Assembly: GCA_965237415.1 (NCBI GenBank)
Contig: CBDEFM010000001.1
Location: 640,001 to 704,000 of the forward strand
Origin: Alphaproteobacteria bacterium
GTDB lineage: Bacteria; Pseudomonadota; Alphaproteobacteria; UBA828
Length of the DNA: 64,000 bases
Direction: 5' to 3'
Below the pieces are notes generated by a model. The model saw only the letters and a list, made by a program, of their open reading frames with translations, searched no databases and was not told the origin of the DNA. Shown piece after piece: positions 5,938-53,828 of this stretch. How positions within the stretch are numbered: the first letter of the stretch is position 1; every line of letters begins with the position of its first letter. Both the position numbers and the translations under genes were made by a program.

Positions 5938-5958
5938 CTAGCAGTAGGAATGCATGCA

Positions 5959-7271: not shown

Positions 7272-8153
7272 TTAGCGATTGAGGGTGCGTTTCCAATCCC
7301 GTCGCAGAGGCCGGAGCCAGACATCCTTCTTCGGCTTGTCATACTGCCTGTCCCGGTCGTAGCGCCCGCGTCCTTGGGTGGCTCCGACATGGATCCAGCC
7401 CGATGCCCTGTAGACCGCGCCGGTATATCGCGGGGTTTCGACGAAAGTCTCGATGAGCACCGGCGTGGTCTTGTAGCGCTCGGTCCAGTCGTCGGGCAGG
7501 CGCCGGCGGATGAGGGCGAGGATGTGCGAACCCAGGTTGGGGATCTCGATCCAGGGCAGGATCAGGAACCTCGGGTTGTCGACCACGAAGGGAAGGTTCT
7601 TCTCGCGCTTCTGCCGTGTCCATCCGATGAAGTTGTCGCGCGGGGCGAGCTTCCACGCGGCGGTGGAGAAGCCGAGCATGGCGAGTGGCCAGCCGTTTCG
7701 GTCCTGGACGGCATAGCGCATCTGGGCGCCGACCAGGGTCTTGTACCCGAGATAGTGGTAGCGGGCGACGAACTCGTTCCAGAGCTTGCCCTCGCGGGTC
7801 TCGCGCACGACGGTCCGCAGATCGAGCGGGCGGACCTCGTCGAGGGTTGTGGGGGCCGGGAACAGCGGCGGCTCGGTATCCGGGCCGAAGACGACCGGCT
7901 TTGGCCGGTGCTGCCGGCCCCTGGGCGGCGGCAGGACGATGAGGCCGTCGCGGTGCTTGGCCAGCATGGCGACCCTGGCCATCATGTCCTTGAGGCCGCC
8001 GTCGGGCTTGAACCAGGCGATGCGCCGGCAGAACTCTCTCGACAGCCCGGCGCGGGTCGGCTGCGGATCGACAGCGATCAGCGCGCGCAGCAGCGCCATT
8101 TCCCCGGCGGTGAAGTCGCGCCCGTAATAGCGGCACTCGACCTGGCCGATCAT
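7272..8153 (-). CDS. DUF4338 (DruA-like) protein
   Basis: RYYGRDFT...LSREFC...WNEFVARYHYLGYKTLVGAQMRY...VVDNPRFLILPW...LIETFVE...YRASGW; start overlaps the end of the IS66 transposase. Confidence 0.85.
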   Translation of the reverse strand: MIGQVECRYYGRDFTAGEMALLRALIAVDPQPTRAGLSREFCRRIAWFKPDGGLKDMMARVAMLAKHRDGLIVLPPPRGRQHRPKPVVFGPDTEPPLFPAPTTLDEVRPLDLRTVVRETREGKLWNEFVARYHYLGYKTLVGAQMRYAVQDRNGWPLAMLGFSTAAWKLAPRDNFIGWTRQKREKNLPFVVDNPRFLILPWIEIPNLGSHILALIRRRLPDDWTERYKTTPVLIETFVETPRYTGAVYRASGWIHVGATQGRGRYDRDRQYDKPKKDVWLRPLRRDWKRTLNR

Positions 8154-11313: not shown

Positions 11314-13204
11314 TATAGCGCGACGATCAAGATGAGACTCCGTATTGCCTCATTCTTGGATGTTCCCGAGCTTCGAGGTGCTTGCCTCACGTCGATGTTC
11401 CCCAAGGTCACGGCTTCGCTTCACTTGTCACGGCTGTGTCCCCAGGCGTGGTGCTGGAGTTCTGGCAGCGTCGGCAGCTGTGGGTAACCGGCTTGCCGCA
11501 GCGACCTCCATGAGTCTGGCGGCGGCGAGCCGGTTATCCACAGCGGTGGCCAAGGCAAGATCGGCCTTGTCGGCTGGTGCCGGTACCACGGTGTCGGATT
11601 GGCTCGCTCCAAACACCAGGTCGTGGGCTTGCTCCTGGCGCCAGACCTGCACGCGGCGTTGCAGCGTACGCAGAAGATTGTCGGGATAACGGTCGGGATG
11701 CTTTGCCTGTAGTTGTTCGAGCAGTTGACGGCTCGTTCGCCACGGCTCGGCTTCGAACCATTCCCGCAACTGCTCGGTGACGTCAGCCAGGGGATCGGGC
11801 CTGCGGCGGCCCCGTTTCGGCTTTGCAGCGGGCCGCGCCGTCGGCCGCACATCACCATCCTTCCATGCCGTTCGCAGCCCGGCGAGAAACTCGTCGATCG
11901 GCGGCACACCGGCCGGCGCCGATTGAACCGCCACGGGCCGGTCGGCAAGATCGACCAGACGCTGTTGCGCCCGTCTCATATCCCTCAACAGGCGGATCGG
12001 ATCCAGGGTCGCGAACGGCGCGCTCACTTCGTCGCGAACGCTTTGCGGTGTGCGCTGATCCGCGAGCAGGCGTTGAAAGGGCGTTGCCGGAGGATGGTAG
12101 CGTTTACACACGTGGGCGCCGTCGCGCGTCTTGCTGGCGAGCTTGAATGAGGGCTGGAAGAAATTCACGAACAATCTCACTGTGGCGTAAAGCTGCGACA
12201 GTGCAGCCACGGCCTCCGGGCCCTCCAGGCGGCGATAGCCCACGATGCGGCGAACGATCGCGCCGTTCTTCTGCTCGACAAAGGCCTGATCGTTCTTGCG
12301 CCAGGGGCGGCAACGCGTGAACTCGATGCCGGCGTCGCGGCAATAGTCCCGCACCGTTTCGTTCATGAACACGCTGTCATTGTCGGTGTCGAACCCGAGC
12401 AGGTCGAACGGCAGGAGCCTGCGGACGGCCGTCAAGACCGCGCTCACGAGCGTGCGCTCGCGGAACAGCAAGGGAGCGCACTCCGTCCATCCCGTGGCGA
12501 TATCGGTGAGTACCAGCGTCTGGACAAAGCTCCCGCGCGTCACCGGGCCGCTGTGAGCCACCAGATCGGCCTCGGCGAACCCTGGCGGCGGATCCTGCCA
12601 GTCAGCATAGGTGCGCACCGGAATACTCCGCCGCACCGATGACGATGCGAGCGAAGATCTTCGGCGCCGCCCGCCGGCCTGCTCTCGTATGCTGCGAAGT
12701 GACCGGTCGATCGTCGCCGCACTCATGGTCAGCAAGCGGCATCGGACATCGTCGGCGAGCTCAAGATGACCATGCCGTTCCATGGCTTCGACGAGAGTGG
12801 GAAGCAGCGGCTTCAGGCGCTTCCCGCAAATGCGGTCCGACGCTTCCCACAACACAACCAGTGCCTCGCGCACCGCATCGTCGTAAAGCCGCCGGCCAGC
12901 TCGCAAGGCTGCCGCTGGGCGCGACGACGAGCCGCCTCGCAGCAATCGCATCACGTGCTTCCGGTGATAGCCCGTCACCGCCACGAATTCATCCAGAATG
13001 CGCGTCTTCTCCTCGCGTCCGCTCTCGCCATACCGCCGTGACAGCGCTGCCACAAGTTCATCCCGTGTCGCCATGCTCACCCTCCTCATACCCAAAGCCC
13101 CCGATCCATTCCCCTCGGGAGCATTTCAGATGAGGCAACGAGTCGCTCAAAAGGAGCAAATCAGGCGAGGCAATGCGGAGTCTCATCTTGATCGTCGCGC
13201 CGCA
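11314..13204 (-). mobile_element. ISNCY-like (rve integrase) element
   Basis: Long TIRs GCGCGACGATCAAGATGAGACTCCG(T/C)ATTGCCTC; 5-bp TSD AAGCG (11309-11313, 13205-13209). Confidence 0.85.
11428..13089 (-). CDS. DDE/rve transposase (ISNCY-like)
   Basis: EKTRILDEFVAVTGYHRKH...PPGFAEADLVAH...FDTDNDSVF...KNDQAFVEQKNG. Confidence 0.88.
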   Translation of the reverse strand: MRRVSMATRDELVAALSRRYGESGREEKTRILDEFVAVTGYHRKHVMRLLRGGSSSRPAAALRAGRRLYDDAVREALVVLWEASDRICGKRLKPLLPTLVEAMERHGHLELADDVRCRLLTMSAATIDRSLRSIREQAGGRRRRSSLASSSVRRSIPVRTYADWQDPPPGFAEADLVAHSGPVTRGSFVQTLVLTDIATGWTECAPLLFRERTLVSAVLTAVRRLLPFDLLGFDTDNDSVFMNETVRDYCRDAGIEFTRCRPWRKNDQAFVEQKNGAIVRRIVGYRRLEGPEAVAALSQLYATVRLFVNFFQPSFKLASKTRDGAHVCKRYHPPATPFQRLLADQRTPQSVRDEVSAPFATLDPIRLLRDMRRAQQRLVDLADRPVAVQSAPAGVPPIDEFLAGLRTAWKDGDVRPTARPAAKPKRGRRRPDPLADVTEQLREWFEAEPWRTSRQLLEQLQAKHPDRYPDNLLRTLQRRVQVWRQEQAHDLVFGASQSDTVVPAPADKADLALATAVDNRLAAARLMEVAAASRLPTAADAARTPAPRLGTQP

Positions 13205-13256
13205 AAGCGCCCGCCGAAGCTCGACCTCGACGTCTACCCGTATCTGCCAAAGGCCA

Positions 13257-14416
13257 CCGTGCCGCAGCCGAGACGGCGCGAGGAGATACGGAGGTTCCGC
13301 CAGGACCCTGACTGCCGCCTGTTCCTGTCCTCCGAGGCCGGCGGCGTTGGGCTCAACCTCCAGATTGCCGACACGGTGATCAACATGGACCAGCCTTGGA
13401 ACCCGGCCAAGCTCGACCAGCGGATCGCTCGGGCGTGGCGCAAGCATCAGCATCGCACGGTCAGGGTTTTCAACCTGGTGAGCGAGGGCACGATCGAGCA
13501 CCGGATGCTGGGGCTTCTGGAGGCGAAGCGGACCTTGGCCGAGGGCGTGCTCGACCGGCGCGGCGACCTCGCCAATATCCCGCTTCCCACGGGCAGAACG
13601 GCCTTCATGCAACGCTTGAAGGCCGTTCTTGGCCCGGACCAGACGACGAAGCCCGACGAGGCCGCCGCGCAGCCGGTGTCCCCGCGTGAGGCTCTGCGCG
13701 ACCGGCTTATCGCCGATCATGGAACTGTGCTGCAACGGATCCTGGGTCATGAGGACGGAACGGCGATCCTGGCGGTGATCGACCTTCCGCCCGGGCGGAT
13801 TGGCGCGGAGGAAGAGCGTCTGGCGGGGCTGACGGAACTCGCCGTCACGGTGATCGATCCCGCAACCCATGAGTCGATGTTGCGGCTGGCTCGATCGGGG
13901 CTGATTGCTTCGCCGACGGAAACGATGGAAGACATCTATCCCGAGCCGGGGGATCGGGAACGCGAGGACGAACGGGTGGGGCTGCTCCGAGCCCGGGCAC
14001 TCGCGGATCGTGCGAATCACAAGCTCAAGGCTGCGCAGCTACTGGCTGGCGGAGGATTCGGCGAGGAAGCACGCGCACCGGCCCTCGACGCGATCCGCCT
14101 GACTGCTGGCTGCCTGGCGGCATCGACAATGGAAGCGGAACCCGAAGACATGGATCAAGCCGCCGTCTTCCTGGCCAAATGGGAACCCGTCGAAGAAGCC
14201 GACGGTGTCGCGCTCAACGCGGTGCGGGCACTCTCCGGCGACACGACGGAACCGGATATTGTCGAGACTGCCGCTGTTTTCCTCGATGACGTGTCAAAGC
14301 GGATCTTCAGAAACGGTGGGGATGCGCTCGGCACATTGAAGCCGGTCCCTTCGCAGGGCGTCGATCACGCGTATCCCCAGTTGTCAGCCGAGGACAGGGT
14401 ATCTGACAGAGGCTAA
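13257..14416 (+). pseudogene. SNF2-family helicase, C-terminal fragment
   Basis: FRQDPDCRLFLSSEAGGVGLNLQIADTVINMDQPWNPAKLDQRIARAWR (motifs V/VI); ATPase N-terminal half absent. Confidence 0.82.
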
Positions 14417-32012: not shown

Positions 32013-33942
32013 GTGCGCCAGGCTAACTGGTGCAGTGCAGCCGGTGAAAGTCCGGCGGGAAAGGAGAAGGCTAGCCACCACTTCCACCCCGAGTCATGGG
32101 CCGTCATCCGCGAGGATGGGGGTTAAGCGTTGACAGGGGCGCGTGCGGGCAGGGCTATTGAGCACCGAAAGAGACTCATCCGGGATGCCGAGGCTTTTTC
32201 CATAGGCCGAAGGTAGCATCTGGTCCACCGATATGGCGACTGGGGGGACAGAATCCCGCGGTGTCTAAGAACCCATGCACGTACGTACGCACTGCACCGG
32301 GACCTGGGAGGTCTCTATGCCATCCCGCTGTCGTGGCGGGGTCGCTGAGGAAAGGAGGAATCCGTAACCGATGATGCACGGCATGGAGAAGTCAGACTCG
32401 GGAATAGTAGCTGTGAAGCCGGCGAACAAAGGGATGAGAGTCCCGGCGGAGTCGATGGAGCGAAGGACCGAGCCCAAGGGGAATCTGGAAGGCCAAAGCA
32501 CGCGCCGGACACAGGACCGGGAAAGCGTGACACAGGCGGCTGACCGGATACGGCGATTTGTACAACGGGAGCCACGGGAGCGTCTGACGACGCTTCTCCA
32601 CCATGTCACGGTCGAAGCGCTGCGCTGGGCGTTCTTCGCGTTGAAGAGGAACGCAGCGGCAGGCGCGGATGGCATGACGTGGCGGATGTACGAGGAAGGG
32701 CTGGAAGGCCGTCTAGCCGACCTTCACGACCGCGTGCACTCGGGAGCGTACCGGGCGACGCCATCACGGCGGGTGAATATTCCGAAACCGGATGGCGGCA
32801 CACGACCGCTCGGCGTCGCGGCCATAGAGGACAAGATAGTCCAGAAGGCTGTGGCGGAGATAATCCTGACGCCGATTTACGAGGCGGAGTTCCTGGGGTT
32901 CAGCTATGGGTTCCGGCCCGGGCGTGGGGCGCATGATGCGCTCGACGCGCTCGCGGCTGGCATCAAACGGCGCAAGGTCAACTGGGTGGTGGACTGTGAC
33001 ATCCGTGCATTCTTCGACAACGTGTCGAGGAACTGGCTGGTCCGGTTTCTCGAACACCGCATCGCGGACAAGCGGGTTATCAGGCTCATCATCAAGTGGT
33101 TGAACGCTGGCGTCATGGAAGATGGAGAGTGGCGGGACAACCTGCGGGGGACGCCGCAAGGCTCGGTGGCTTCACCGGTCTTGGCGAACATCTACCTGCA
33201 CTATGTCCTCGACTTGTGGTTCCAGAAGAAGTGGCGCAGCCATGAGGTCGAAGGCGACGCAATCATCGTGCGGTACGCCGATGATTTCGTGGTGGGTTTT
33301 CAGCACAAGCGGGACGCGGAGCGCTTCCTGAACGCCGTAAAGGAACGGTTCGAAAGCCTCGAACTGGACACACACCCCGACAAGACCCGGCTCATCGAGT
33401 TCGGGCGGTTTGCCCTGAAAGACCGTCGGCAACGAGGGCAGGGCAGACCGGAGACCTTCGACTTTCTGGGCTTCACGCACTACTGCGCGAAGGACAGACG
33501 AGGGAGATTCCAGTTGGGGCGCAAACCGGTCGCGAGGCGGATGAGCCGGACACTGAAGCGGATTAAGGAGGCGCTACGCAGGCGGATGCACTGCAAGTCC
33601 AAGGAGACGGCAAGATGGCTGGGGAAGGTGCTCGACGGATGGCTCAACTACTACGCAATCCCGAACAGCTACCGATACCTCGACCGTTTTACTATCCGCC
33701 TGAAGCGACTGTGGTTGCGCACGCTACGCCTACGGTCGCAGAAGGACCGCACGACATGGGCCGATATCACGGCACTGACCAAGACCCATTGGCCCAAGCT
33801 GGAAATCCGACACCCGTGGCCGGACCAACGATTTGCCGTCAGCGCTATGCGGGGCGGAACCCAAGGGAGGAGCCGGATGCCCTAGCGGGCCTGTCCGGAT
33901 CTGTGCGGGGGGGCGCTGGGCAACCAGCGTCCCTACCGCGAT
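32013..33942 (+). mobile_element. Group II intron inserted antisense into the IS66-like transposase
   Basis: 5' GTGCG at 32013; domain V GAGCCGGATGCCCTAGCGGGCCTGTCCGGATC and domain VI ending CCGCGAT at 33942; exons rejoin in frame. Confidence 0.9.
32371..33885 (+). CDS. ltrA: Group II intron reverse transcriptase/maturase (no endonuclease domain)
   Basis: IPKPDGGTRPLG, FSYGFRPGR, GTPQGS, RYADDF, FDFLGF, maturase X domain. Confidence 0.94.
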   Translation: MMHGMEKSDSGIVAVKPANKGMRVPAESMERRTEPKGNLEGQSTRRTQDRESVTQAADRIRRFVQREPRERLTTLLHHVTVEALRWAFFALKRNAAAGADGMTWRMYEEGLEGRLADLHDRVHSGAYRATPSRRVNIPKPDGGTRPLGVAAIEDKIVQKAVAEIILTPIYEAEFLGFSYGFRPGRGAHDALDALAAGIKRRKVNWVVDCDIRAFFDNVSRNWLVRFLEHRIADKRVIRLIIKWLNAGVMEDGEWRDNLRGTPQGSVASPVLANIYLHYVLDLWFQKKWRSHEVEGDAIIVRYADDFVVGFQHKRDAERFLNAVKERFESLELDTHPDKTRLIEFGRFALKDRRQRGQGRPETFDFLGFTHYCAKDRRGRFQLGRKPVARRMSRTLKRIKEALRRRMHCKSKETARWLGKVLDGWLNYYAIPNSYRYLDRFTIRLKRLWLRTLRLRSQKDRTTWADITALTKTHWPKLEIRHPWPDQRFAVSAMRGGTQGRSRMP

Positions 33943-43156: not shown

Positions 43157-43868
43157 GGTAGGCACAGAACGGGGGGTCGGGAAGGTGGGCGAGTGGCCAA
43201 ACAGCACGAAATACGGCACAGAGCGCATAGCCACCGGTCAGGCGGTGCTCCCACAAGGATCGACGTTGACCGGGGCGACGCGGTACGGATAACTGGGGAG
43301 CTATGGCCAAAGCGCGACGGGGAATCGATGGATTGGAGGATTCGGTCACGACCCAAGGCGTCACAAACCGTCTCGATATGGAATCCGGCCGATTGCTATA
43401 CGATGACGGACGGACATGGGCTCAGCGGCCAGCCGCGGCGAAATCCCAAGAGGACAGCCGCGTTGGGGGCCGGGACGCTACTGGTCCGGATGCTCGATTG
43501 CATATGTGGCAAGGAGGTGATGTACCGCAACATCTTGATGCGGTCGACCAGGGAGGCGGCCAGAGAAACAGCCGGAATGCACCTTGAATCAGCCGCGACG
43601 CTGTCCGAAAAGGCGGAGCCACCTCAGTCGAATGAGGGTTCGGAAGCGTGGTTCCGTCAGGGAGTGGGACCGCTGACTAGTTGTCGACAACCGTCGCCCT
43701 CCCGCAGCCGCGGACCTCGCCCATGAACGAGTTGAGCTACGAAGTTGTTATCCTCGCATGGGCCGACCGGATATGTACAATCAGATTATCCAAGCCTAGC
43801 GTATGTCAACACCGAACCCGCTGCCACAGATAGCGGCGGCTACTAGAGAAGCATCTTGGAGCACTAGG

Positions 43869-45233
43869 ATGACCGTTGCACGCAACGACCAAGTCTATTT
43901 CAAAAGCCTAAGCCTCACCAACGTACGTTCATTTGGCGAGACGCAACAGCTCGATATGACCGATGCAGATGGCCGACCGGCTCAGTGGACTCTAATCCTC
44001 GGTAACAACGGCGTTGGAAAGACAACACTGCTTCAATGCCTCGCATCGATGCGGCCGGTTCCTGCAGTACCCGCTAAAGAAGACACCAATGCTCCGACCC
44101 CCGAGAGAGTTGTGCCTGCCCTTCTACAGCGTGAGAACAGCGAGCTCGTTGCATTGGCACGGGTCGGCGAGGAAGAGGTGAACTTGCACGCTGCTCTCGT
44201 TGTAGGTCAACCGTTTCGTTCAAAGGCCACGAAGGCTAAAGAGGTTGTTTTCAAGGCGAACATTCGGGTTAAGAACGGAGAGCTAAAAAACGTAAAGCAA
44301 ACTTCTGTTGACATGAAGAATGCTAGCGAGCCGCTGGTTATTGGATATGGGGCGGCGCGTCACATGCATAGCAGGGGTGCTGAGGTCTTCATGCCACATC
44401 CAGACCCAACGGCATCACTGTTTGATCCTAGCGTAGAGCTTGTAGATACAAGAGATATTCTGGAACAGCTCGACTATGCGGCGGTGAAGCGACAACCTCG
44501 CGCAAAGGGTCTTCTTTCATGCATCAAGGAGGCCTTGGCAAAGCTTCTCCCGGACGTAGAAAAGGCCTCAGCAGTTAAGTTGTATGGGCCTGCGCCGCCG
44601 GGTTCCCACAACCGAAAAGCTGGCGTCCAAGTTGTGACGCCCTATGGGGAGGTTCCTTTTGAGGCGCTAAGTTTAGGCTACCAAACGATGACGGCGTGGA
44701 CAGTCGATTTGGCCTGGCGACTTACACAACATTACCCAAATGCTGATGATGCGTTGCAAATGCCGGCGATTGTTCTCATTGATGAGCTTGATCTGCACTT
44801 GCATCCACGCTGGCAGCGGGAAATACGGGATAGCATTTCGGACGCGTTTCCGCGAATTCAATTCATTGCGACTGCGCACAGCCCGTTACTGGCACAGTCA
44901 TATTTGGACCTCAACTTAGTTGTCGTGCGACAAGAAGGCGGCCAAGCAATCATCGAAAGAGATTCAAACATTGTTAGAACTTGGCGGATTGATGAAGTAG
45001 TTACCAGCGCCCTTCACGAAGTTAACTCTGTCTATTCTCCCGAGATTGGGCGTGAACTTCGGGAACGAACCAAGCTCTTGCAAAAGCGCCGTCTAACTCC
45101 AGAGAACAAGAAGCGCTTGGACGAGCTGAATAATTTGGCAGAAAAACTCGTCCCGGCAATTGATTCGGATAACCATCGGGCCCTGGATGTTATTCGGCGG
45201 GCAGCAAGCCTCTTGGATGTGAACGAGAAGTGA
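43869..45233 (+). CDS. ABC/AAA ATPase, PtuA/Septu-like
   Basis: LTNVRSF, GNNGVGKTT, LSLGYQ, VLIDELDLHLHPRWQ, QFIATAHSP. Confidence 0.85.
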   Translation: MTVARNDQVYFKSLSLTNVRSFGETQQLDMTDADGRPAQWTLILGNNGVGKTTLLQCLASMRPVPAVPAKEDTNAPTPERVVPALLQRENSELVALARVGEEEVNLHAALVVGQPFRSKATKAKEVVFKANIRVKNGELKNVKQTSVDMKNASEPLVIGYGAARHMHSRGAEVFMPHPDPTASLFDPSVELVDTRDILEQLDYAAVKRQPRAKGLLSCIKEALAKLLPDVEKASAVKLYGPAPPGSHNRKAGVQVVTPYGEVPFEALSLGYQTMTAWTVDLAWRLTQHYPNADDALQMPAIVLIDELDLHLHPRWQREIRDSISDAFPRIQFIATAHSPLLAQSYLDLNLVVVRQEGGQAIIERDSNIVRTWRIDEVVTSALHEVNSVYSPEIGRELRERTKLLQKRRLTPENKKRLDELNNLAEKLVPAIDSDNHRALDVIRRAASLLDVNEK

Positions 45234-46015
45234 TTTTGGTCATTAAGCCGGTTGCCCCTCGCTCATTGGCTGCCGGTGTCGCAGAAACCGTCACACATTG
45301 CACTGACTTCGATGCCGACCCACAGGGTTACCGAGATGGCGCAAAATCATTTTCGTTCAAGCGCTCGATATACGGCAGTGCTCGAGTAAAGAATGTCCTC
45401 AAAGGTGCTCAGAAAGAAAAGTGTTGTTTTTGTGAGGCGCGGTTCGATGCAAATTATCAGGGGGATGTCGAGCACTACCGACCTAAAGGCGCGATTGGTT
45501 CTGGAAAGACAAAGATCAAGCCGGGATATTATTGGCTGGCTTACACTTGGAACAATCTCTATTACGCGTGCGCTGACTGCAACCAGTATCGGAAGCGTGC
45601 AGCTTTTCCACTAGTTGATGAAACCAATAGAGCACTGGATCATCATGGTGCAATAGGTGACGAAGATCCACTCATCCTGGACCCGGGTGGCCCCCGCGAT
45701 CCTCGCGATCATATTCGTTTTGTTAGGGACGTGCCGACGGGGACCACTGCTGCTGGGCGAGAAACCATTGGGCGCCTAAAACTCGACCGAGAGGCACTGT
45801 GTCGAGACCGTCGAGAGCACTTTCGTATTCTTCAAGCAATGATTGACATCATTCGCCTCAACGAATTTGACGAGCGACCAGAGGCGATGCGATGCGTGCG
45901 CGATGCACGCTCAAATTTGGTGAATTATATGGAGCCAGAGGGCAAATACTCGGCCGCCGCCCGGGACTTTCTGGCCCCTTTTCGGCAATACTGGGAGGCA
46001 AGAATTCAATTGTGA
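45230..46015 (+). CDS. HNH endonuclease, PtuB-like
   Basis: KCCFCE...DVEHYRPK...YYWLAYTWNNLYYACADCNQ; GTGA overlap with the ATPase. Confidence 0.85.
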   Translation: MILVIKPVAPRSLAAGVAETVTHCTDFDADPQGYRDGAKSFSFKRSIYGSARVKNVLKGAQKEKCCFCEARFDANYQGDVEHYRPKGAIGSGKTKIKPGYYWLAYTWNNLYYACADCNQYRKRAAFPLVDETNRALDHHGAIGDEDPLILDPGGPRDPRDHIRFVRDVPTGTTAAGRETIGRLKLDREALCRDRREHFRILQAMIDIIRLNEFDERPEAMRCVRDARSNLVNYMEPEGKYSAAARDFLAPFRQYWEARIQL

Positions 46016-46489
46016 TCCGGCACGTTCGAGTCGATGTAGCCCAATTCCTTTTCAGGTCACTTTCGCTCGTAACCCGTTCGGCCGCAATTGAAACGAAATC
46101 TGCCAATATACGGCTTTCTACGGTGCAAGCTTTCAGCCCGGTTTTCTCAAACCTTGGTCCGAGACGAGGATGGTCGGCGGGTTTTTGGGTATTGGTTTGG
46201 GATGACCGTGGGCTGCGGCCGGGTGGGGGATTTGAGGCGAGCGGAGACGGCCTCCGTTTGGCGGGTGGGTTGTGTTGCGCTGTGCCTCTTTTGTTGCTGG
46301 GACGGGTTTGGCTGGGCCGCTTACGCCGCGGCGGCGGATAGTCGGTGGTGGGCGCGTTGGAACTCGCTCCGGTTAAGGACAACCGGAAACCATCGCGAAC
46401 TTGATCCGTCGCACGCTGATGCGCACCAGGGCGGCGATCTTCAGCAGCTTGAGCCGGATGGTGCCGCAGCTTGCCCTGGCGAAGCGGGT

Positions 46490-46602
46490 ACCCTCGAAGC
46501 CATCGCCGCCGGACACCCCAACAGCCGCATCGACGAACTGCTCCCCTGGAACTTCACGCCCGCGTCAACCTGAAATCCAGGTGCCGCGCCGGCACCGCTT
46601 AC
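46490..46602 (+). mobile_element. IS66 right-end remnant
   Basis: LEAIAAGHPNSRIDELLPWNF (TnpC tail) followed by ...CCGCTTAC. Confidence 0.65.
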
Positions 46603-46606
46603 GATA

Positions 46607-46830
46607 GTTCAGCGTTCAGCGCCTTCGTCAGCGTACCGATGTGGACCGACCCGCTCTTGATGATTCAGGTCTACGACCCGGTGCTCACTCCGCGCTCGGA
46701 GGCGACACTGAGCGCCATCAGCGCTTTCCTGTTCCTGTTGATCGAGCTACTGGACCACTTTGGCGCCGGGGTGCTACCCAGTGTCGGGGCGTGCTTCCAG
46801 GCGCGTGTTGGCCCCAGAATATTCAAGCGG
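46607..46830 (+). pseudogene. Degenerate fragment of a type I secretion ABC transporter (PrtD-like)
   Basis: FSAFVS..MWTDPLLMIQVYDPVLTPRSEATL...LLD...VGACFQAR resembles the PrtD N-terminus. Confidence 0.5.
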
Positions 46831-46941
46831 AAAGACAGGATACGATGATGGCGGTACTGGATGGGATTGTCGCGACGGTAGTGGAAAAAAAGCGGGCTAC
46901 GGGTCGAGGGGTTGTCGGAGAGACTTGCTCGCTCCACATAT

Positions 46942-47790
46942 TTATGACCTAGTGCTGCTAGTGTAAGGAAAATACGGTGCCAAGAATGAAGAGGCAAGCC
47001 GATACCCTGAAGTTGTCCAATTGCGAGAGCTGATAAGACGTGCCACGCCAACCATTTCCGCTTCTATAGCGCTGACACGTGCTCTTCCGAACTCCGCACT
47101 TTGTGGCCGTTGATTTACGATGTCGGCCCAAAATGCTCGAAGATTGCCGAAGACATAAATTCCATGAACAAGTCCCTGCAAAGTTCGTCTTTCTCCTTTC
47201 CACGGGGAATGTACTAAGATCTCATCGGTATTGTTCGCTATCAGCGGCTCCACTCTCTCAACCAAGGAAAGCTGAAGGTGAAGTGCTTCGTGAACGATAC
47301 TCTCCGCTAGACGCTCCACTCTGTATTGCGCGTCCACTGGTGGGCACGAAACAAAGATAGAAAAAGGCAATGCGGGGTCGCTAAAACTAATGTCGATCTC
47401 GTGGTCGTTGCTAATCAGAGGATGCAAAGACCGACACATCTCCGTGACGGTTGCATGAATTTCCTGATTGTCTTGTATTAGAACCAGTGAATCGACCAAC
47501 GTGTGCATAAACATTTTGCCTTCCAAGTCACATGCCTTGGCAAGTTGTAGACCCACGCTCTCCCAGGGTTTAGCTAAATCACCCGACAATAGCTCCACAA
47601 TCATATTTGGGCAAGGTGACGACGGTAGCCTTTCAGATGGGCTTAGGGATTTAGGGTTGGATCCACCTAGGTGCCGAGAAGTAGAGTAATGATACCAAGG
47701 AGAACATTCACCAAGAAACTCCTGCCTCAACTTCGTCGGTGCAGATGGGTGCCAGCCGCATGGCCGAGCAATTAGGTCGTAAACTGTCAT
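46942..47790 (-). CDS. HExxH-motif peptide-modifying protein (aKG-HExxH type)
   Basis: SFSDPALPFSIFVS...LAESIVHEALHLQL...SPWK..RTLQGLVHGIYVF. Confidence 0.82.
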   Translation of the reverse strand: MTVYDLIARPCGWHPSAPTKLRQEFLGECSPWYHYSTSRHLGGSNPKSLSPSERLPSSPCPNMIVELLSGDLAKPWESVGLQLAKACDLEGKMFMHTLVDSLVLIQDNQEIHATVTEMCRSLHPLISNDHEIDISFSDPALPFSIFVSCPPVDAQYRVERLAESIVHEALHLQLSLVERVEPLIANNTDEILVHSPWKGERRTLQGLVHGIYVFGNLRAFWADIVNQRPQSAEFGRARVSAIEAEMVGVARLISSRNWTTSGYRLASSFLAPYFPYTSSTRS

Positions 47791-48365
47791 CCACTGGCGG
47801 GGTAAAAGGAATACACGATCGTAAAACGCTCTCCCGAATGCACAGTGCTAACGGCATGATAAGAGTGTGGCGAAATTAGAAATGCTTGGATTGAACCATT
47901 AAAAGGCTCGATCACCTTACTTAGGGATTCAGGCTCGGGTCCTGAAAATAGCATCAAATAGCCGCCATGTTCGGGTTTCCAACCCCTATTAAGTTGAAGT
48001 AGGAGCCGATGGCTCTCTCCTCCGGGGATGAAGTCATTGTGAATACGTATGGTTTGGCCGCAAACAAGCTTATGTGCGGTGATGTCAACAGATTCGCTCA
48101 ACGATTGACCAAATAGCTGGAATAGTTGGCGACGCAGCGACGCTAGAGCGTTGGGACAAATAAGGTGTTGCAAGAAGGGAGGTACGGAGATATGGCGAAG
48201 ACTGAATTCGTACTGCTCATAGAAGTCTGTAGTGGTTGGCGTCCAAGGGGCTTTTTCTTCCAGCCAAGTAAGACATTCAACGAAATTTGATAGCATTACC
48301 GTAGGCGCAACCAGATGTTCGAAAGGAACGCTGGCGAACTCTACATTGTCAATATCAGGAAACAC
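47787..48365 (-). CDS. yhhC: 2OG-Fe(II) oxygenase of the cyclophane RiPP cluster
   Basis: DFYEQYEFSL...IRIHND...W..EHGG.L...SYHAVS...RFTIVYSF. Confidence 0.82.
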   Translation of the reverse strand: MFPDIDNVEFASVPFEHLVAPTVMLSNFVECLTWLEEKAPWTPTTTDFYEQYEFSLRHISVPPFLQHLICPNALASLRRQLFQLFGQSLSESVDITAHKLVCGQTIRIHNDFIPGGESHRLLLQLNRGWKPEHGGYLMLFSGPEPESLSKVIEPFNGSIQAFLISPHSYHAVSTVHSGERFTIVYSFYPASG

Positions 48366-48368
48366 AGA

Positions 48369-49544
48369 TCAGCTCGGCGGTTGAAATGGCACTTGGCCAA
48401 AGTCGAATTCGCCCAGTCGATCAACAGCATGATTTATTAAGAGGGCGTGGTCCTTGCAGTAGACGGAGGGGTTGTTGTAACCGTGTTCCTCGCTCCAGCG
48501 GTACAAGGGCATTCCCCCACCGCAAAGGGGGAGAAAAGGGCAGACTTTACACTCGGTGCAGGTCGGAATCTGCATAGCGGCATAAGAAAGGTACTCGTGG
48601 GAAGAAAGAACGTCATCTAAGGTGCTATTCACTATGTTCCAACAGTGATCAAAACGGTCGGCACCTTCGTAGGAGGCGCGCAGTGTGTCGTTCTTACGAA
48701 TATCACCGTTAGTCTCAACAATCAGGATGCCATGTTGGTCTTCACCAACCCCTTCCTTCTGGTTAGAGCCCCCAAGATACAGTTTTACTAAATCATCAAA
48801 TATGCGGATTGGAACACTTGATTTGTCGGAGAGGTACAAATCGAAGAGTCGCACCAACCAGTCTCCATACTCAGTGGTAGTAAAATGTGACTTACTGGGC
48901 GGGAGCCGGTCATGGTTCCCATCTTGCAACAGGAAATCCATGCTTGGGGTATCCAGTTCCTTCAAGAAAGCGTATACAGAATCGGGTGAAATAGAAGGCT
49001 GAATCACGGACAAAGTTCCAGCAAAAAGAAAATCGTGCTCTGAATGCGAGGCCAATAGGCGTATACCTCGGAGTACGGCTGAGAATGTGCTCCGGCCACG
49101 ACGGTCAAGTCTAGCAATATCATTTGCTGCGCGGGGCCCGTCTATACTGACGGATACACTTGTCCGGGTCTCTGCAAAGAGGTCCAGAAACTTCTCCGAG
49201 AGGAGGGCTCCGTTTGTTTGAATGCTGATGGGGTGACGATCAGGGTTCATTGAGGCTCGCAGCCCGCGAAGCAGTAGTGCCAAGTCCTCAAAACCTAGTA
49301 GAAGAGGCTCGCCGCCGTGCAGGACAATGGCGAATCCTGCGCGCTGATGCGCCGCATGCGCGGCTAGCCGATCCCGGACGGCCAGCAGCGTGTCGCGGCG
49401 CATGCGTTTCGGTTGGCTGCGCCAACCTGTATCTGGTCCTTGATATATGTAGCAATAGGAGCAGTCAAAGTTGCAGCGGCTAGCGGTCTTGACGAGGACT
49501 GTGTCCACACGCTTGGAGGCGGTGACGGGGTGGCTAAAGCGCAA
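48369..49544 (-). CDS. yhhB: Cyclophane-forming radical SAM/SPASM peptide maturase
   Basis: VKTASRCNFDCSYCY, LHGGEPLL, QTNG, VSIDG, SPASM CTECKVC...CGGG...YC. Confidence 0.88.
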   Translation of the reverse strand: MRFSHPVTASKRVDTVLVKTASRCNFDCSYCYIYQGPDTGWRSQPKRMRRDTLLAVRDRLAAHAAHQRAGFAIVLHGGEPLLLGFEDLALLLRGLRASMNPDRHPISIQTNGALLSEKFLDLFAETRTSVSVSIDGPRAANDIARLDRRGRSTFSAVLRGIRLLASHSEHDFLFAGTLSVIQPSISPDSVYAFLKELDTPSMDFLLQDGNHDRLPPSKSHFTTTEYGDWLVRLFDLYLSDKSSVPIRIFDDLVKLYLGGSNQKEGVGEDQHGILIVETNGDIRKNDTLRASYEGADRFDHCWNIVNSTLDDVLSSHEYLSYAAMQIPTCTECKVCPFLPLCGGGMPLYRWSEEHGYNNPSVYCKDHALLINHAVDRLGEFDFGQVPFQPPS

Positions 49545-49549
49545 AACGG

Positions 49550-49744
49550 CTACCTACCGCCGCGATTGTGTCGGTTGTGGACGCGGTCATAGCCGGCTTT
49601 GGCGTTATGCTCGTTTCGCACCTCCTCCATTAAACGAGACAGGACGGGGTGGCGCGTCGCCAGAACGGGTCGGTCCGTGCTCGGGCGATCATCAGTCGAG
49701 GGCGGTGACGAATCCAGTGACGGTTGGGCAGCATGATTGTCCAT
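49550..49744 (-). CDS. yhhA: RiPP precursor, YhhA-type (core GYDRVHNRHNRGGR)
   Basis: 64 aa; leader HPVLSRLMEEVR; three aromatic-X-Arg motifs; GGAG RBS; 5 nt upstream of the rSAM gene. Confidence 0.85.
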   Translation of the reverse strand: MDNHAAQPSLDSSPPSTDDRPSTDRPVLATRHPVLSRLMEEVRNEHNAKAGYDRVHNRHNRGGR

Positions 49745-49949
49745 GGTTTGGGCTCCAGCTTCCTTCGTGGCGGTCCGACCGAGTACTAGAATGGCGAAGA
49801 GGCCATTGGCTAGCATGGTAGTGTAATGGCTAGGATAGATGCAAGAAGGAAAGTAAATCATTGATAAAGCGGAGTTTTTCTCTTCTCATAATCGTAACTT
49901 ATTGAAAACAAACAATTCTATTTTCTATCTTGAGGGGACGCGGGCTGAG

Positions 49950-50450
49950 CCGTCGGTCGTCGGCCACGCGCCGACGCCGCTCGACCCCGCACCGAACATG
50001 GGCGCGGCGCTCGGCATCGGTGTGTGGATCAAGCGCGAAGACTGCACCGGGCTCGCCTTGGGCGGCAACAAGGTGCGCCAGCTTGAGTTCCACTTTGGCG
50101 CGGCGCAGGCGTGCGGCGCGGATACGGTGCTGGTCACCGGTGCGGTGCAGCCGAACCTGATGCGCATCGCCGCCGCGGGTGCGCACCAGGTTCGGGATGG
50201 AGGCGCACATCCAGCTCAAGGAGCGGGTGGACGGCGCCGGCGGTCCCTACCGCACATCCGGCAACCTGTTGCTCGACCAGGTGCTGGGCGCTGCGCTGCA
50301 CCCTTTCCCCGGGGGCGGGGACGAGGCGGCGGCGGACGCGGCGATGGAACGGCGCTCGCGTCGGAGAGCTGTAAGCCCTACGTCATCCACTCCGAGCCGG
50401 GGCATCCGCCGCGCCGGCGCGTGGGACGCGAAGCTGTGCCGAACATTTAG
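49950..50450 (+). pseudogene. D-cysteine desulfhydrase/ACC deaminase family, frameshifted fragment
   Basis: PTPLD...WIKREDCTGLALGGNKVRQLEF...GNLLLDQVLGA in shifting frames. Confidence 0.8.
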
Positions 50451-51979: not shown

Positions 51980-52375
51980 CTAGCTCCATCTCTCCCAAAC
52001 ACGGTCGTACCACCTGCCTTCCGATTTCGAAATCGGCAGGTGCCACATGATCGCATTCCGAACAATTGAGTAATGGCTTCTGCATGGGAACTTGACCCCG
52101 ATCGAAGGCCGCAGGGTTAGATACTCACCATCGTAGGTCAAGCTTCGAGTCTCAGGGTCCAGCGTCACGTCGACCAAACGACCACACCCGCATGGACATA
52201 GATGGGAAAGGGTGGCGAACCTCATGCTGACGTAAAGTGTGCCATTTTCCATTTCGGGTAAGTGCGGGATTGTCTCAACAAACAATGGTTTTAGTACTAT
52301 TGATTCTCGGTTCCTCACATCATAGTTTGGATAAGAATTGCGACTCTCCCGCTTTCCCCATTTCCAAAATCGCAC
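51980..52375 (-). CDS. DUF6527-family protein
   Basis: FVETIP...GTLYVSMRFATLSHLCPCGCG...LTLRPSIG...CRSHY.I. Confidence 0.82.
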   Translation of the reverse strand: MRFWKWGKRESRNSYPNYDVRNRESIVLKPLFVETIPHLPEMENGTLYVSMRFATLSHLCPCGCGRLVDVTLDPETRSLTYDGEYLTLRPSIGVKFPCRSHYSIVRNAIMWHLPISKSEGRWYDRVWERWS

Positions 52376-52376
52376 T

Positions 52377-53513
52377 TTACACCCCCCTCGGTATGAGAGA
52401 TTGTTCACTAGCACTGTAGTGTAGGCACTCTTCTCTTTGTTCCTGCCAGAATTGACCGCGCATCTTTCTCCAAGACTGAATTGCCCAGCCAGCAGCCATT
52501 GAGTAGACGTCGGGCAAGTCAAGGCTTCCATAGTCGTCCTGTCCCGCCTGGCCAACTTGAGGGATAGCATCCCTCCAAGAGGACACACCGACGTGGGCGG
52601 TTACTATCCGTAAGGAAACCTTGACTCGCCTGTCTATACGCACTGGTGAGAGTCCTACGACGACGAACGGAATTCCAGCGTTGGCCAGCGTGTCACACAC
52701 CATCATCCGGTCGTCAGCGTCGTCCACGGCCACGAAAGTGAAAGTGGACTTTTCAATGACCTCCTGCACGTTTTCAGGGCGCACCCTTACATTGTGGCCA
52801 TGTACGTCCGTATGGATGAGGGAGTAAGCCTCCTGGAACCAGTGGGCCTTCGGCCTACCGATCCAGACGTTCGGATCGAGGCCACCGGGCATGCGAAGTA
52901 TGTTCTTGGGTTCAATGCAGTCGTAGTCCCATCCATGAACCTCTCGAGGGTCGGCCTTGACAACAAAATCTGCTATCCATGCGCCGACACCACCGAGGCC
53001 GACAATCGCCACACGCTCTTGAGCTACCAGACGCCTCCACTCCCTTGCTTCTGGCAGTTGGTCACCAAGCACATCGAACGTATAGGGACGAGGAGCTGGT
53101 TCCTCCCTTGACGCAGATTGGCCAAGGAACAGCGCATATATCTGCTTGACATAATTGTTTAGTGCTTCCCAAGCATCCTCATACTCGCGGCCTTTCAGCT
53201 TGATCGAAAGAACAAGGCTGGAATGAGCCCGTCCAATCACGCCGTTGGTCAACTCATTGCCGGACCGGTCGTACAATCGTCCATCGGAGAGACCTCGTAT
53301 ATTGGCCGTGTGCAAAGCACCTTGTTGCCAGTCGTGGCTTGCTTTGAGTTCGTCCGTGTTTGATGCGGTGCCTACGCAGATGTGACACTTGCCTGCGATA
53401 TTCGGCGCGACAAAACAAGGCACGCCCAATGCACTTATTTCCAAGTCTCGACGCTCAATTGTCCACCCACGTCGCTCCGCTTCACGGCGAGCCAGTGATT
53501 CATGCTCAGACAC
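52377..53513 (-). CDS. ThiF/E1-like adenylyltransferase with N-terminal DUF6791-like domain
   Basis: VAIVGLGGVG, DYDCIEPKNILRMPG, FTFVAVDD, WRKMRG; roughly 150-aa N-terminal domain. Confidence 0.85.
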   Translation of the reverse strand: MSEHESLARREAERRGWTIERRDLEISALGVPCFVAPNIAGKCHICVGTASNTDELKASHDWQQGALHTANIRGLSDGRLYDRSGNELTNGVIGRAHSSLVLSIKLKGREYEDAWEALNNYVKQIYALFLGQSASREEPAPRPYTFDVLGDQLPEAREWRRLVAQERVAIVGLGGVGAWIADFVVKADPREVHGWDYDCIEPKNILRMPGGLDPNVWIGRPKAHWFQEAYSLIHTDVHGHNVRVRPENVQEVIEKSTFTFVAVDDADDRMMVCDTLANAGIPFVVVGLSPVRIDRRVKVSLRIVTAHVGVSSWRDAIPQVGQAGQDDYGSLDLPDVYSMAAGWAIQSWRKMRGQFWQEQREECLHYSASEQSLIPRGV

Positions 53514-53522
53514 GCACTTCCC

Positions 53523-53828
53523 CTAGGCCAGATATGAGTCGTCAATCTTGAACGACAGTTCATCAACCACGGCCATTGGTTCATCCGATGGATAGAAAAT
53601 TCCCTTTGTTCCATCTTTCGCCGTCCAGTTGATCCCCGGAAGATCACCTATGACGTGTCGATCCGGATCGAGTTTGTTCCACTGTTCGACCACTTGCGCA
53701 AAGCTAATTGTCGGCTTGTCCCACAGCACCGAGCGAGCATTGATGTAAATTGTGAACTCCTTGATGATGTCCGTTGGTTCGATTTCGATGGGGATGGGTC
53801 CATCGCCGTTACCAGGTTCTTGCACCAT
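53523..53828 (-). CDS. Ubiquitin-like (multi-ubiquitin family) protein
   Basis: FTIYINARSVLWDKPTISFAQVV...INW...G...P...VVDELSFKI, a beta-grasp pattern; GAGGAGG RBS; 9 nt from the E1 gene. Confidence 0.75.
   Translation of the reverse strand: MVQEPGNGDGPIPIEIEPTDIIKEFTIYINARSVLWDKPTISFAQVVEQWNKLDPDRHVIGDLPGINWTAKDGTKGIFYPSDEPMAVVDELSFKIDDSYLA

Follow-up and report, generated by a model that had tools for sequence, protein, structure and literature searches.

A YhhABC-type triceptide cluster beside a Septu gene pair on mobile alphaproteobacterial DNA: gene content, linkage and a possible role in antiviral defence

The YhhABC cluster and its predicted product

The window, the whole 64,000-nucleotide stretch of alphaproteobacterial DNA that was analysed and to which all positions refer, contains a four-gene triceptide cluster on the minus strand at 46942-49744:

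49550..49744, minus strand: yhhA, precursor peptide of 64 aa (NF041705, 47.8 bits, cut-off 36)
48369..49544, minus strand: yhhB, radical SAM/SPASM cyclophane-forming maturase of 391 aa (NF041707, 477.3 bits, cut-off 445)
47787..48365, minus strand: yhhC, 2OG-Fe(II) oxygenase of 192 aa (NF041706, 231 bits, cut-off 150)
46942..47790, minus strand: stand-alone aKG-HExxH gene, product of 282 aa with the motif HEALH (TIGR04267, 87.1 bits, cut-off 40)

The cut-offs for all four genes are the curated NCBIfam values. The profile scores exceed them, far beyond chance, and the order yhhA-yhhB-yhhC is repeated in 48 loci of other species. An earlier note on this DNA had placed the four genes here and assigned them to a YhhA-type triceptide precursor, a 3-CyFE radical SAM enzyme, a 2OG oxygenase and an aKG-HExxH protein; the location is correct and the NCBIfam search upheld the families. 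Its description of the genes as abutting or overlapping also holds, with gaps of 5 nt between yhhA and yhhB and 3 nt between yhhB and yhhC, and an overlap of 4 nt between yhhC and the HExxH gene. The latter, present in 40 of the 48 loci, is the usual fourth gene of most such clusters and is not peculiar to the window.

The yhhA gene starts with ATG at 49744, with GGAG located 8 nt upstream. In its product the N-terminus is variable and the leader helix (HPVLSRLMEEVRNE) conserved; the core YDRVHNRHNR precedes GGR (core as read, GYDRVHNRHNRGGR; C-terminus ...AGYDRVHNRHNRGGR). The three aromatic-x-Arg triplets noticed earlier, YDR, HNR and HNR, are read in the sequence at the C-terminus. The core is nearly invariant and its pattern is kept beside homologous radical SAM genes in 45 related loci, with Y52, R54, R58, H59, N60 and R61 invariant in the alignment (A3). 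No core residue tracking the presence of the HExxH gene was found: V, T or M at position 4 occurs with and without this gene, as do the C-terminal G, GR or GQ.

The cysteines C24/C28/C31 of the radical SAM motif CxxxCxxC and C332/C335/C341/C363 near the C-terminus of YhhB are invariant among 18 homologues, and the nearest solved chain is the radical SAM domain of ChlB (9gm3, E 1e-64). In YhhC the iron triad HxD...H (H109-x-D111 and H170) and R180 are invariant among 50 homologues, and the enzyme is expected, by analogy, to be an Asp/Asn beta-hydroxylase. The fourth protein matches its family domain at residues 110-264 (TIGR04267 / IPR026337), contains H167-E168-x-x-H171 invariant in 39 homologues, and is related to ChlH (8s5f, E 2e-13). 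That it might be an aminomalonate enzyme of the SmaX type forming a pair with YhhC was ruled out, SmaX being described in the available text of PMC12186529 as an HD-domain and not an HExxH protein.

According to the passages available from PMC11002830 and PMC12186529, the characterised YhhB bonds Tyr-C3 and His-C2 to Arg-C-beta (PMC11002830), and the characterised YhhC produces erythro-beta-hydroxy-Asp (PMC12186529). The stapling and YhhC steps are taken from these homologues: YhhB would staple the core into three three-residue cyclophanes, one Tyr-C3-Arg-C-beta and two His-C2-Arg-C-beta, and YhhC would beta-hydroxylate the middle Asp/Asn residues. The stapled and hydroxylated peptide predicted by the earlier note agrees with the reported chemistry. 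[quoted passage not shown]

Taken by itself, the cluster is one more ordinary representative of the already characterised triceptide system YhhABC (Sugiyama et al., JACS 2022, described in the available portions of PMC11002830, PMC11499958 and PMC12186529), with which it shares a precursor of the Y-x-R, H-x-R, H-x-R type, a radical SAM/SPASM enzyme, a 2OG oxygenase and the order A-B-C. Compared with YhhABC as outlined in those parts of the citing papers, it adds the stand-alone aKG-HExxH gene and is tied to ptuAB. The best solved relatives, ChlB and ChlH, come from FxsB-type triceptides, where the radical SAM and aKG-HExxH parts are fused in one protein (Morishita et al., Nat Chem 2024, cited in the available text of PMC12636437). 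There too, a cyclophane synthase is paired with a 2OG hydroxylase of the HExxH type that acts on the stapled peptide, whereas the window encodes both enzymes by separate genes and has an additional classical 2OG oxygenase, YhhC.

The convergent ptuAB pair and the acquired module

A Septu gene pair faces the triceptide cluster, and the following features make up the region:

43803..45233, plus strand: ptuA, Septu ABC-type ATPase of 476 aa (PADLOC PDLC00304, 474 bits, model positions 6-440 of 444)
45230..46015, plus strand: ptuB, Septu HNH nuclease of 261 aa (PADLOC PDLC00339, 263 bits, model positions 1-254 of 261)
46016..46941, no strand: variable spacer between the convergent units, with an IS66 C-terminal remnant
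49745..50014, minus strand: conserved 270 bp upstream of yhhA, end of the shared module
43500..50014, no strand: whole low-GC module, ptuA-ptuB, spacer and HExxH-yhhC-yhhB-yhhA

The two ptu genes overlap by 4 nt and converge on the yhh genes. In alignment A2, PtuA has an invariant Walker A motif, GNNGVGKT, as well as invariant D327/H332/H334/H359 motifs; the protein matches the PtuA of the PDB (8ee4, E 2e-19), and the Cys-rich HNH residues of PtuB are conserved in alignment A4. The pair resembles Septu in its full-length PADLOC matches, its gene overlap and its intact Walker and HNH motifs.

The GC content of the module is 0.49-0.59, whereas most of the window lies at 0.65-0.74. Alignment with a locus from an Alphaproteobacteria MAG (L002) revealed two blocks 84-85% identical between different flanks; the yhh-side block, with 85% identity, spans 46981 to 50014. 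The spacer is not common to the two: in L002 it is replaced by 1.5 kb of other DNA, while in the window an ORF at 46088-46573 matches DDE_Tnp_IS66_C. ptuAB and the yhh cluster thus form one 6.5-kb horizontally acquired module. The conserved segment at 49745..50014 is presumably a promoter or regulatory region; no sigma-70 consensus site was found on the minus strand upstream of yhhA, no convincing promoter or terminator at the module, and no repeats bounding its ends.

All six reading frames (yhh, HExxH and ptuAB) are full length relative to the profiles and contain no stop codons. Metatranscriptome contigs 95-99% alike span all six genes; they derive from close relatives in one study and are not proof of transcription. 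In three of the four RNA runs yhhA pieces had the highest contig depth, a value that cannot rank genes.

The surrounding window is a mosaic region rich in IS elements and gene fragments, with the following further features:

3-1833: TrwC relaxase, at one end of the window, with SSB
1637-3766: TrwB coupling protein
32047-32273: group II intron (Rfam)
32371-33885: reverse transcriptase (RT) with a group II maturase domain, the only RT in the window
51980-53828: DUF6527/ThiF-E1/multi-ubiquitin operon, a defence-type cassette
55.6-60.8 kb: three or four tyrosine integrase genes

The location among defence-type cassettes proposed earlier is confirmed by Septu at 43803-46015 and the multi-ubiquitin operon at 51980-53828. 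That the cluster lies on an ICE is plausible: relaxase, TrwB, SSB and integrases are present, but no mating-pair genes, att sites or element ends were identified in the window. The only tRNA call, an ARAGORN tRNA-Val at 50328-50411, received no support from Rfam.

Linkage of the yhh genes to PtuAB and to defence islands

PtuA/PtuB homologues are encoded at most 6 kb from yhhB in 22 of the 48 species-level loci, belonging to several phyla. The pair is co-oriented upstream in 11 of them, divergent in six, convergent as in the window in three, and in two (L019 and L045) nested inside the cluster, with yhhC on one side and the HExxH gene on the other. PADLOC upheld the PtuA/PtuB assignments in all three loci sampled. 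In seven further loci PtuAB is replaced by an HEC-04-type ABC ATPase directly upstream, and closely related YhhBs swap between these two ATPase types only. The census of neighbours is based on our own rough gene calls, with selected neighbours scanned.

In the PtuA tree, 23 Yhh-linked proteins are split from six unlinked ones by a 100/99 branch, and none of 500 label shuffles was as good, related genomes being non-independent samples. The window PtuA falls inside the Yhh-linked clade. The six unlinked PtuAs belong to the same subfamily but stand alone; the Yhh-side PtuAs form a branch separate from them and occur, in every case sampled, only beside yhh genes; most linked loci were located via YhhB, and the in-clade cases reached from PtuA are few (L050, L051, G474 and G574). 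Two of these, L050 and L051, are linked rows found from the PtuA side in metagenomes. The metagenome scan for PtuA had yielded 72 loci, among which only L050-L054 contained full PtuA and PtuB; the rest, with a P-loop only, were dropped.

With a threshold of E<=1e-40, PtuA turned up in 4 of the 401 genomes representing the window's own phylum, counting G000, in 6 of the 401 from Acidobacteriota and in 2 of the 380 from the class to which G402 belongs; roughly 1% of the genomes sampled, or fewer, contain this subfamily. YhhB scored over the cut-off in four genomes of the Acidobacteriota sample, all four with PtuA within 2.3 kb; the same sample contained two lower-scoring PtuAs without YhhB and four sub-cut-off YhhB-like genomes without PtuA. 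ptuAB is no chance neighbour of the yhh cluster, and it is this company, rather than the cluster, that is the new point. Literature searches found no papers joining Septu or PtuA with cyclophane, triceptide, SPASM, HExxH or radical SAM.

Yhh loci without PtuAB include 11 actinobacterial loci and five three-gene loci of Gammaproteobacteria (Colwellia, Pseudomonas, Marinospirillum, Marinomonas and Moraxella), the latter with neither the HExxH gene nor ptuAB. The nearly invariant core is the same whether or not PtuAB is present, and so shows no tuning to PtuAB. No insertion specific to the Yhh-linked PtuAs, of the kind present in Ec78 PtuA, was found. A complex prediction for PtuA, PtuB and YhhA (alignments A2, A4 and A3) gave a score of 0.01, which speaks neither for nor against binding.

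PADLOC-recognised genes occur within about 6 kb in 40 of the 48 loci, and in 29 of these the PtuAB or HEC-04 ATPase is directly adjacent. Nineteen loci have neither ATPase, and 11 of them contain other PADLOC systems: Shedu, RdrB-like, RecD/McrBC, TerY-P (twice), BREX BrxHI/BrxD, PD-Lambda-2, PDC-S06 with BilD, PDC-S35, PDC-S37 and Mokosh-like. Seven loci (L022, L025, L030, L031, L034, L037 and L043) have no PADLOC gene nearby, and in one the contig is too short to judge. On two conjugative plasmids the yhh genes adjoin a kinase/PP2C/AAA set or a Piwi and SMEK pair. In L022 a three-gene yhh cassette is inserted alone in a binding-protein gene, and single loci, L005 and L018, have MFS or TonB-receptor genes nearby.

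The absence of a protease or exporter reported by the earlier note applies to the window and, as a conserved feature, to the related loci: across the 48 loci no conserved transporter, receptor, peptidase or other neighbour was found. An apparently conserved S51 peptidase was an artefact, its matches outside L049 running antisense to ptuA. Relatives of YhhB were not detected in phage records at E<=1e-20 (50,697 records).

Possible roles of the peptide

Among retrons, type I-A (Ec78/Eco7) co-opts PtuAB and type I-B has an ATPase-Toprim effector. The window PtuA and PtuB also match the PADLOC models of the retron I-A ATPase and HNH proteins, and the alternative ATPase of the seven loci matches HEC-04 and then ATPase-Toprim_I-B. 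A Toprim domain in this ATPase is unproven, being suggested by a conserved E...DGD pattern and partial PADLOC matches; its C-terminal region gave no Pfam match, and the fold predicted for the C-terminal 226 aa (A5, 7 rows; mean pLDDT 65.5) retrieved nothing from the PDB with Foldseek at E<=0.001. In the available passages of PMC12819146 and PMC12673091, retron Ec78/Eco7 co-opts PtuAB, and the msDNA sequesters PtuAB until it is cut by a phage nuclease (PMC12673091). As in types I-A and I-B, an accessory module with a special small product lies here beside a PtuAB-type ATPase-nuclease, but, unlike in type I-A, this product would be a modified peptide. The likeness is one of architecture, not of membership: no RT or retron RNA was found at 43-50 kb, and the only Rfam hit was the group II intron at 32047-32273, to which the sole RT belongs.

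A further parallel is provided by the lanthiphages, anti-phage class I lanthipeptide clusters that are enriched within defence islands and among mobile elements, are usually transporter-free and are proposed to act inside the cell; 26.6% of the defensive lanthipeptide clade lies near defence systems, compared with 5.6% of non-defensive clusters (10.1101/2024.06.26.600839, in the text available). Unlike them, Yhh peptides would contain radical SAM cyclophanes instead of lanthionines, occur in other phyla and have a specific partner system beyond general residence in islands, and their part in defence is a proposal drawn from gene neighbourhoods.

The explanation that we moderately favour is that the intact YhhABC and aKG-HExxH cluster and the convergent ptuAB form an acquired module whose peptide is intracellular and works with the dedicated PtuAB lineage in anti-phage defence. 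As neither an exporter nor a dedicated protease is encoded, the YhhA product would remain intracellular, and the mature peptide would act together with the ATPase-nuclease against phage. We infer this defence function, raised in the earlier note, and the coupling of peptide to nuclease from the conserved, specific Septu linkage and the defence-island context, which provide comparative support.

It is rather unlikely that the peptide is instead an autonomous intracellular anti-phage compound, a form of chemical defence that would accompany Septu and other systems only because selection favours the joint movement of defence genes, with neither regulatory nor physical coupling to PtuAB. Such independence is consistent with yhh cassettes standing alone beside many different defence systems, with the cassette of L022 inserted by itself, with a core that is the same whatever the neighbour, and with the lanthiphage precedent of a transporter-free RiPP acting in the cell (10.1101/2024.06.26.600839, available text). 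Co-travel, however, leaves unexplained the one PtuA lineage seen only beside yhh in every case sampled, the nesting of ptuAB between yhhC and the HExxH gene (L019, L045), and the exchange of YhhB between just PtuAB and HEC-04.

The lack of a conserved transporter, receptor or peptidase in the 48 loci, the PADLOC genes near 40 of them (29 with an adjacent ATPase) and the invariance of the core across phyla, which would be unusual for competition peptides, all argue against an ordinary secondary-metabolite triceptide (antibiotic, signal or metal-binding compound) released by general proteases and exporters, with defence neighbours explained by shared mobile DNA. This account, which we consider improbable, draws on the location of the cluster close to conjugation and integrase genes, in low-GC mobile DNA, and on the MFS or TonB-receptor genes near L005 and L018. 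Beta-hydroxy-Asp and His are good metal ligands. Other triceptides are treated as natural products in the available parts of PMC11002830 and PMC11499958. The least probable account by far is that of a silent or decaying passenger without current function: IS elements and pieces of genes abound in this mosaic region, the spacer itself holds an IS66 remnant, and the related locus L013 lacks yhhA and the 5' parts of yhhB and ptuA, but in the window the six frames are full length without stops, the catalytic residues are intact, and RNA-library contigs of close relatives span the six genes.

Within the preferred reading, of a peptide acting with its PtuAB lineage in defence, the peptide is perhaps a regulator of Septu. 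A more specific and only tentatively held version makes the stapled, hydroxylated YhhA peptide a guard of the Septu lineage, a peptide counterpart of retron msDNA that restrains PtuAB or, elsewhere, the HEC-04/OLD-like ATPase. Made continuously, it would keep the nuclease restrained; a phage that disturbed the making or the integrity of the peptide would free the nuclease, and the infection would be aborted. This arrangement would account for a PtuAB lineage never seen without yhh while yhh occurs without that lineage, for the reshuffling of the two modules between lineages, and for the invariance of the core across phyla together with the absence of an encoded exporter or protease.

Work on triceptides concerns their enzymology and treats them as natural products; Septu, for its part, is a defence system of wide occurrence. 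To our knowledge, the Yhh family has no known biological role, and the known route for adding a sensor to Septu is the retron. The phylum-spanning linkage of yhh genes to Septu suggests, at the level of gene neighbourhoods, an in-cell antiviral role of the peptide. The module is small, with six genes in 6.5 kb. If true, the partnership between a RiPP cluster and one Septu lineage would give the Yhh peptide a testable function and would add a second RiPP class to bacterial immunity after the anti-phage lanthipeptides, possibly a peptide-based nuclease regulator.

The yhh gene cluster and its family

The earlier note had proposed a triceptide cluster at 46942–49744 of the window, and both its observation and its interpretation were upheld: the region holds four packed genes, all above curated NCBIfam cut-offs and with intact catalytic residues in the three enzymes, and represents a known kind of cluster.

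49550–49744, minus strand: yhhA, triceptide precursor, 64 aa with C-terminal AGYDRVHNRHNRGGR; GGAG 8 nt ahead of the ATG
48369–49544, minus strand: yhhB, radical SAM-SPASM maturase; NCBIfam YhhB 477.3 bits (cut-off 445)
47787–48365, minus strand: yhhC, 2OG-Fe(II) oxygenase; NCBIfam YhhC 231 bits (cut-off 150)
46942–47790, minus strand: stand-alone HExxH gene; aKG-HExxH beta-hydroxylase domain 87.1 bits (cut-off 40)

YhhA scored 47.8 bits against the curated NCBIfam cut-off of 36. Across 46942–49744, yhhA and yhhB are separated by 5 nt and yhhB and yhhC by 3 nt, and yhhC overlaps the HExxH gene by 4 nt. Pfam recognized only generic Radical_SAM and 2OG domains in the cluster, with no match for the YhhA peptide or the HExxH protein. 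Homologue alignments revealed invariant CxxxCxxC and SPASM cysteines in YhhB, an invariant HxD...H in YhhC and, among 39 homologues of the HExxH protein, an invariant H167-E-x-x-H171. Among solved structures, YhhB is closest to the ChlB radical SAM domain (9gm3, E 1e-64) and the HExxH protein to ChlH (8s5f, E 2e-13).

YhhB is described as a three-residue cyclophane synthase linking Tyr-C3 and His-C2 to Arg-C-beta (PMC11002830, PMC11499958). In PMC12186529, YhhC is included in a list of Asp/Asn hydroxylases, and an erythro-beta-hydroxy-Asp standard was obtained from YhhB/C-modified YhhA. Three forms of aKG-HExxH enzymes are presented in PMC12636437, namely fused ChlB/ChlH, BpmH and PflC/PosC, the last performing hydroxylation and oxidative backbone cleavage. 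Since YhhB has been characterised, YhhC is listed as a hydroxylase and yhhA, yhhB and yhhC already carry these names in RefSeq plasmid records, the window cluster is an ordinary new member of an already known family.

YhhB relatives abound, with at least 2824 proteins reaching E ≤ 1e-20 in a set of 8000 scored candidates. With each species represented by a single genome, a scan yielded 48 loci, whose gene content was determined by searching their six-frame ORFs with the window proteins. YhhB and YhhC are present in all 48 and YhhA in 45, with one more recovered by clustering. The HExxH gene is the usual fourth gene of yhh clusters, because 40 of the 48 loci carry it and three of the eight absences (L011, L020, L044) fall at contig edges; the five true three-gene clusters are those of the gammaproteobacterial loci L021, L022, L024 and L025 and of L031 from Moraxella. 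The YhhA core, Y-[DN]-R-x-[HY]-[NH]-R-H-N-R, occurs at every locus from Streptomyces to Acidobacteriota and is preceded by a leader with a conserved helix of the PVLSRLxEEVR type. NCBIfam re-scoring of four diverse loci placed all four above cut-off.

Several loci depart from the usual layout. YhhB and YhhC are fused in a single frame in two Paracoccaceae MAGs (L015 1239–2948, L016 5959–7707), and at L039 (4023–5991) a yhhA-like ORF lies between yhhB and yhhC, not ahead of yhhB. The annotated yhhB of Novosphingobium plasmid pLA4 (L133 7007–9142) encodes 711 aa and adjoins a Piwi and SMEK pair. At L022 (5187–8565) a bare three-gene yhhABC cassette interrupts a periplasmic binding-protein gene, with Pfam Peripla_BP_5 positions 1–116 on one side and 107–360 on the other; thus, the cassette inserts as a unit.

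Linkage to Septu and other defence genes

The window also encodes both Septu components, as full-length genes:

43803–45233, convergent with the yhh genes: ptuA, ABC-type ATPase; PADLOC 474 bits
45230–46015, convergent with the yhh genes: ptuB, HNH nuclease; PADLOC 263 bits

Searches with these two proteins found PtuA/PtuB homologues within 6 kb in 22 of the 48 yhh loci; three sampled loci checked with PADLOC gave 429–465 bits for PtuA and 262–290 bits for PtuB. The order ptuA-ptuB-yhhA-B-C-HExxH on one strand is found at 11 loci, while ptuAB and yhh are divergent at six and convergent, as in the window, at three (one showing ptuB only, at a contig end). At the remaining two (L019, L045) ptuAB is nested, with yhhC on one side and the HExxH gene on the other. 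A single gap at L013 (4822–6882) takes out yhhA together with some 100 codons at the start of yhhB and roughly two thirds of the divergent ptuA, and therefore both units are disabled together. A Yhh-adjacent acidobacterial ptuA (G474:C13:55222–56574) carries one in-frame TGA, which could reflect a pseudogene or a sequencing error.

Phylogenetic analysis of PtuA included 29 rows, omitting L011 (without ptuA), L013 (a 157-aa fragment) and metagenome matches confined to the P-loop. A branch with 100/99 support separates 23 Yhh-linked PtuAs from six unlinked ones (metagenome loci L052–L054 and genomes G066, G074 and G090); one change is enough to account for the linkage label, and none of 500 shuffles equalled that. 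The linked rows L050 and L051 were discovered via the PtuA search and not via YhhB.

Both genes were rare in the genomes sampled. Among 401 genomes of the window's phylum, PtuA was detected at E ≤ 1e-40 in four, one of them G000, and YhhB over cut-off in two, G000 and G383, the latter an unpublished genome on which this one count depends; YhhB over cut-off was absent from the other three PtuA-bearing genomes of this sample. Among 401 Acidobacteriota genomes, six contain PtuA and four contain YhhB over cut-off, and in all four PtuA lies within 2.3 kb of YhhB; two lower-scoring PtuA genomes lack YhhB, and four genomes with sub-cut-off YhhB-like genes lack PtuA. In the class of G402 (380 genomes), PtuA was limited to the seed genome and one weak match. 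The genome samples include kin and are not independent, so no p-value is given for the linkage. The linkage is asymmetric: where sampled, this PtuAB lineage always lies beside yhh genes, and yhh genes often occur without PtuAB.

Seven further yhh loci (L005, L007, L008, L009, L012, L014, L018) carry a different, 515-aa ABC ATPase immediately upstream, with HEC-04 as top PADLOC match (120–129 bits) followed by ATPase-Toprim_I-B; L045 has both ATPase types. In these seven HEC-04-type proteins (at about 3.7–5.5 kb in each locus) a conserved C-terminal domain of ~215 aa contains an invariant LCED...VLDGDS and looks Toprim-like from its sequence; Pfam, folding and Foldseek gave no identity for this domain.

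Nineteen loci have neither PtuAB nor the HEC-04-type ATPase, and clear PADLOC genes lie near 11 of them.

Defence-type neighbours of yhh loci with neither PtuAB nor HEC-04
L015: Shedu (PADLOC, 451 bits)
L016: RdrB-like and KAP NTPase
L021: RecD-like and McrBC
L024: PDC-S35
L026: PD-Lambda-2_B
L029 and L032: TerY, kinase, PP2C
L033: PDC-S37
L035: PDC-S06 and BilD
L040: BrxHI and BrxD
L048: Mokosh-like

PADLOC genes were not found near seven others (L022, L025, L030, L031, L034, L037, L043), and the contig of L020 is too short to judge. Overall, 40 of the 48 loci have PADLOC-recognised neighbours in a census based on our own gene calls and a scan of selected neighbours. The pattern recurs on two conjugative plasmids. 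No YhhB relative was found at E ≤ 1e-20 in 50,697 phage records, and no further gene, transporter or peptidase is conserved across related yhh loci.

Recombination and genomic surroundings

The YhhB tree, built by a quick method, comprises 50 rows, with fragments L045 and L050 omitted. One starred clade of 18 rows consists exclusively of PtuAB-linked (11) and HEC-04-linked (7) members, the two partners interchanging between close YhhB relatives; a starred clade of 10 Acidobacteriota rows is entirely PtuAB-linked. YhhB of the window and of the alphaproteobacterial MAG locus L002 is of the ‘gamma’ type. Their PtuA clusters with those of L039, L050 and L051, while the YhhBs of L039 and L051 are placed elsewhere on the YhhB tree (the L050 fragment being omitted). 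Because PtuA and YhhB of the window and L002 group with different relatives, the yhh and ptuAB halves have been recombined yet stayed together. Both halves are 84–85% identical between the window and L002, with unrelated spacers and flanks, and the module is low in GC, at 0.49–0.59 versus 0.65–0.74 for most of the window.

Metatranscriptome contigs from four runs of one study, 95–99% alike, span ptuA, ptuB, the HExxH gene, yhhC, yhhB and yhhA, although contigs from RNA libraries are not proof of transcription. Contigs of three RNA runs match the window only in a 100-bp piece of an IS66 remnant (46390–46490) and then diverge; these derive from other copies or other organisms.

On the far side of the yhh genes, a low-GC minus-strand operon (51980–53828) encodes DUF6527, ThiF/E1-like (weak PADLOC E1-E2 matches) and multi-ubiquitin-domain proteins, and resembles a defence cassette for ubiquitin-like conjugation. 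Elsewhere in the window, PADLOC matched a low-GC ORF to a TIR effector (49 bits); this ORF adjoins a DruA-domain ORF (5908–6882 and 7272–8153), and IS110 and IS1595 transposases surround the pair. An ORF at 12998–14416 contains a helicase C-terminal domain alone, with BrxHI/DpdE/ZorD-like PADLOC matches, and probably represents a defence-helicase fragment. At 32047–33885, RNA domains of a group II intron (Rfam RF02005, 165 bits) precede the reverse transcriptase/maturase of that intron. The 84-nt tRNA-Val(tac) called by ARAGORN at 50328–50411, inside a truncated PALP-family ORF, is probably false, as Rfam gave no tRNA there at gathering score.

Possible role of the Yhh–Septu pairing

By homology, YhhB would form three cyclophanes on YhhA and YhhC would beta-hydroxylate the peptide, which the HExxH enzyme may oxidize further; the product may remain intracellular and act jointly with PtuAB. 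Retron types I-A and I-B are comparable in architecture, in that a module for a small product is joined there to the same two effector types as at the yhh loci, and in the Ec78/Eco7 retron PtuAB is described as sequestered by msDNA until a phage nuclease cuts it (PMC12819146, PMC12673091). Against a tailored peptide–PtuAB pair stand the identical YhhA core in loci without PtuAB and the failure to find a PtuA element specific to the Yhh-linked clade. In the literature searched, anti-phage lanthipeptides were the sole RiPP precedent found, and no paper was found that relevantly connects Septu/PtuA to triceptides, cyclophanes, SPASM, HExxH or radical SAM. The asymmetric linkage falls short of proof, but matches what would be expected of a peptide that restrains or arms the nuclease, and this conserved, lineage-specific Yhh–Septu coupling is the part deserving follow-up.
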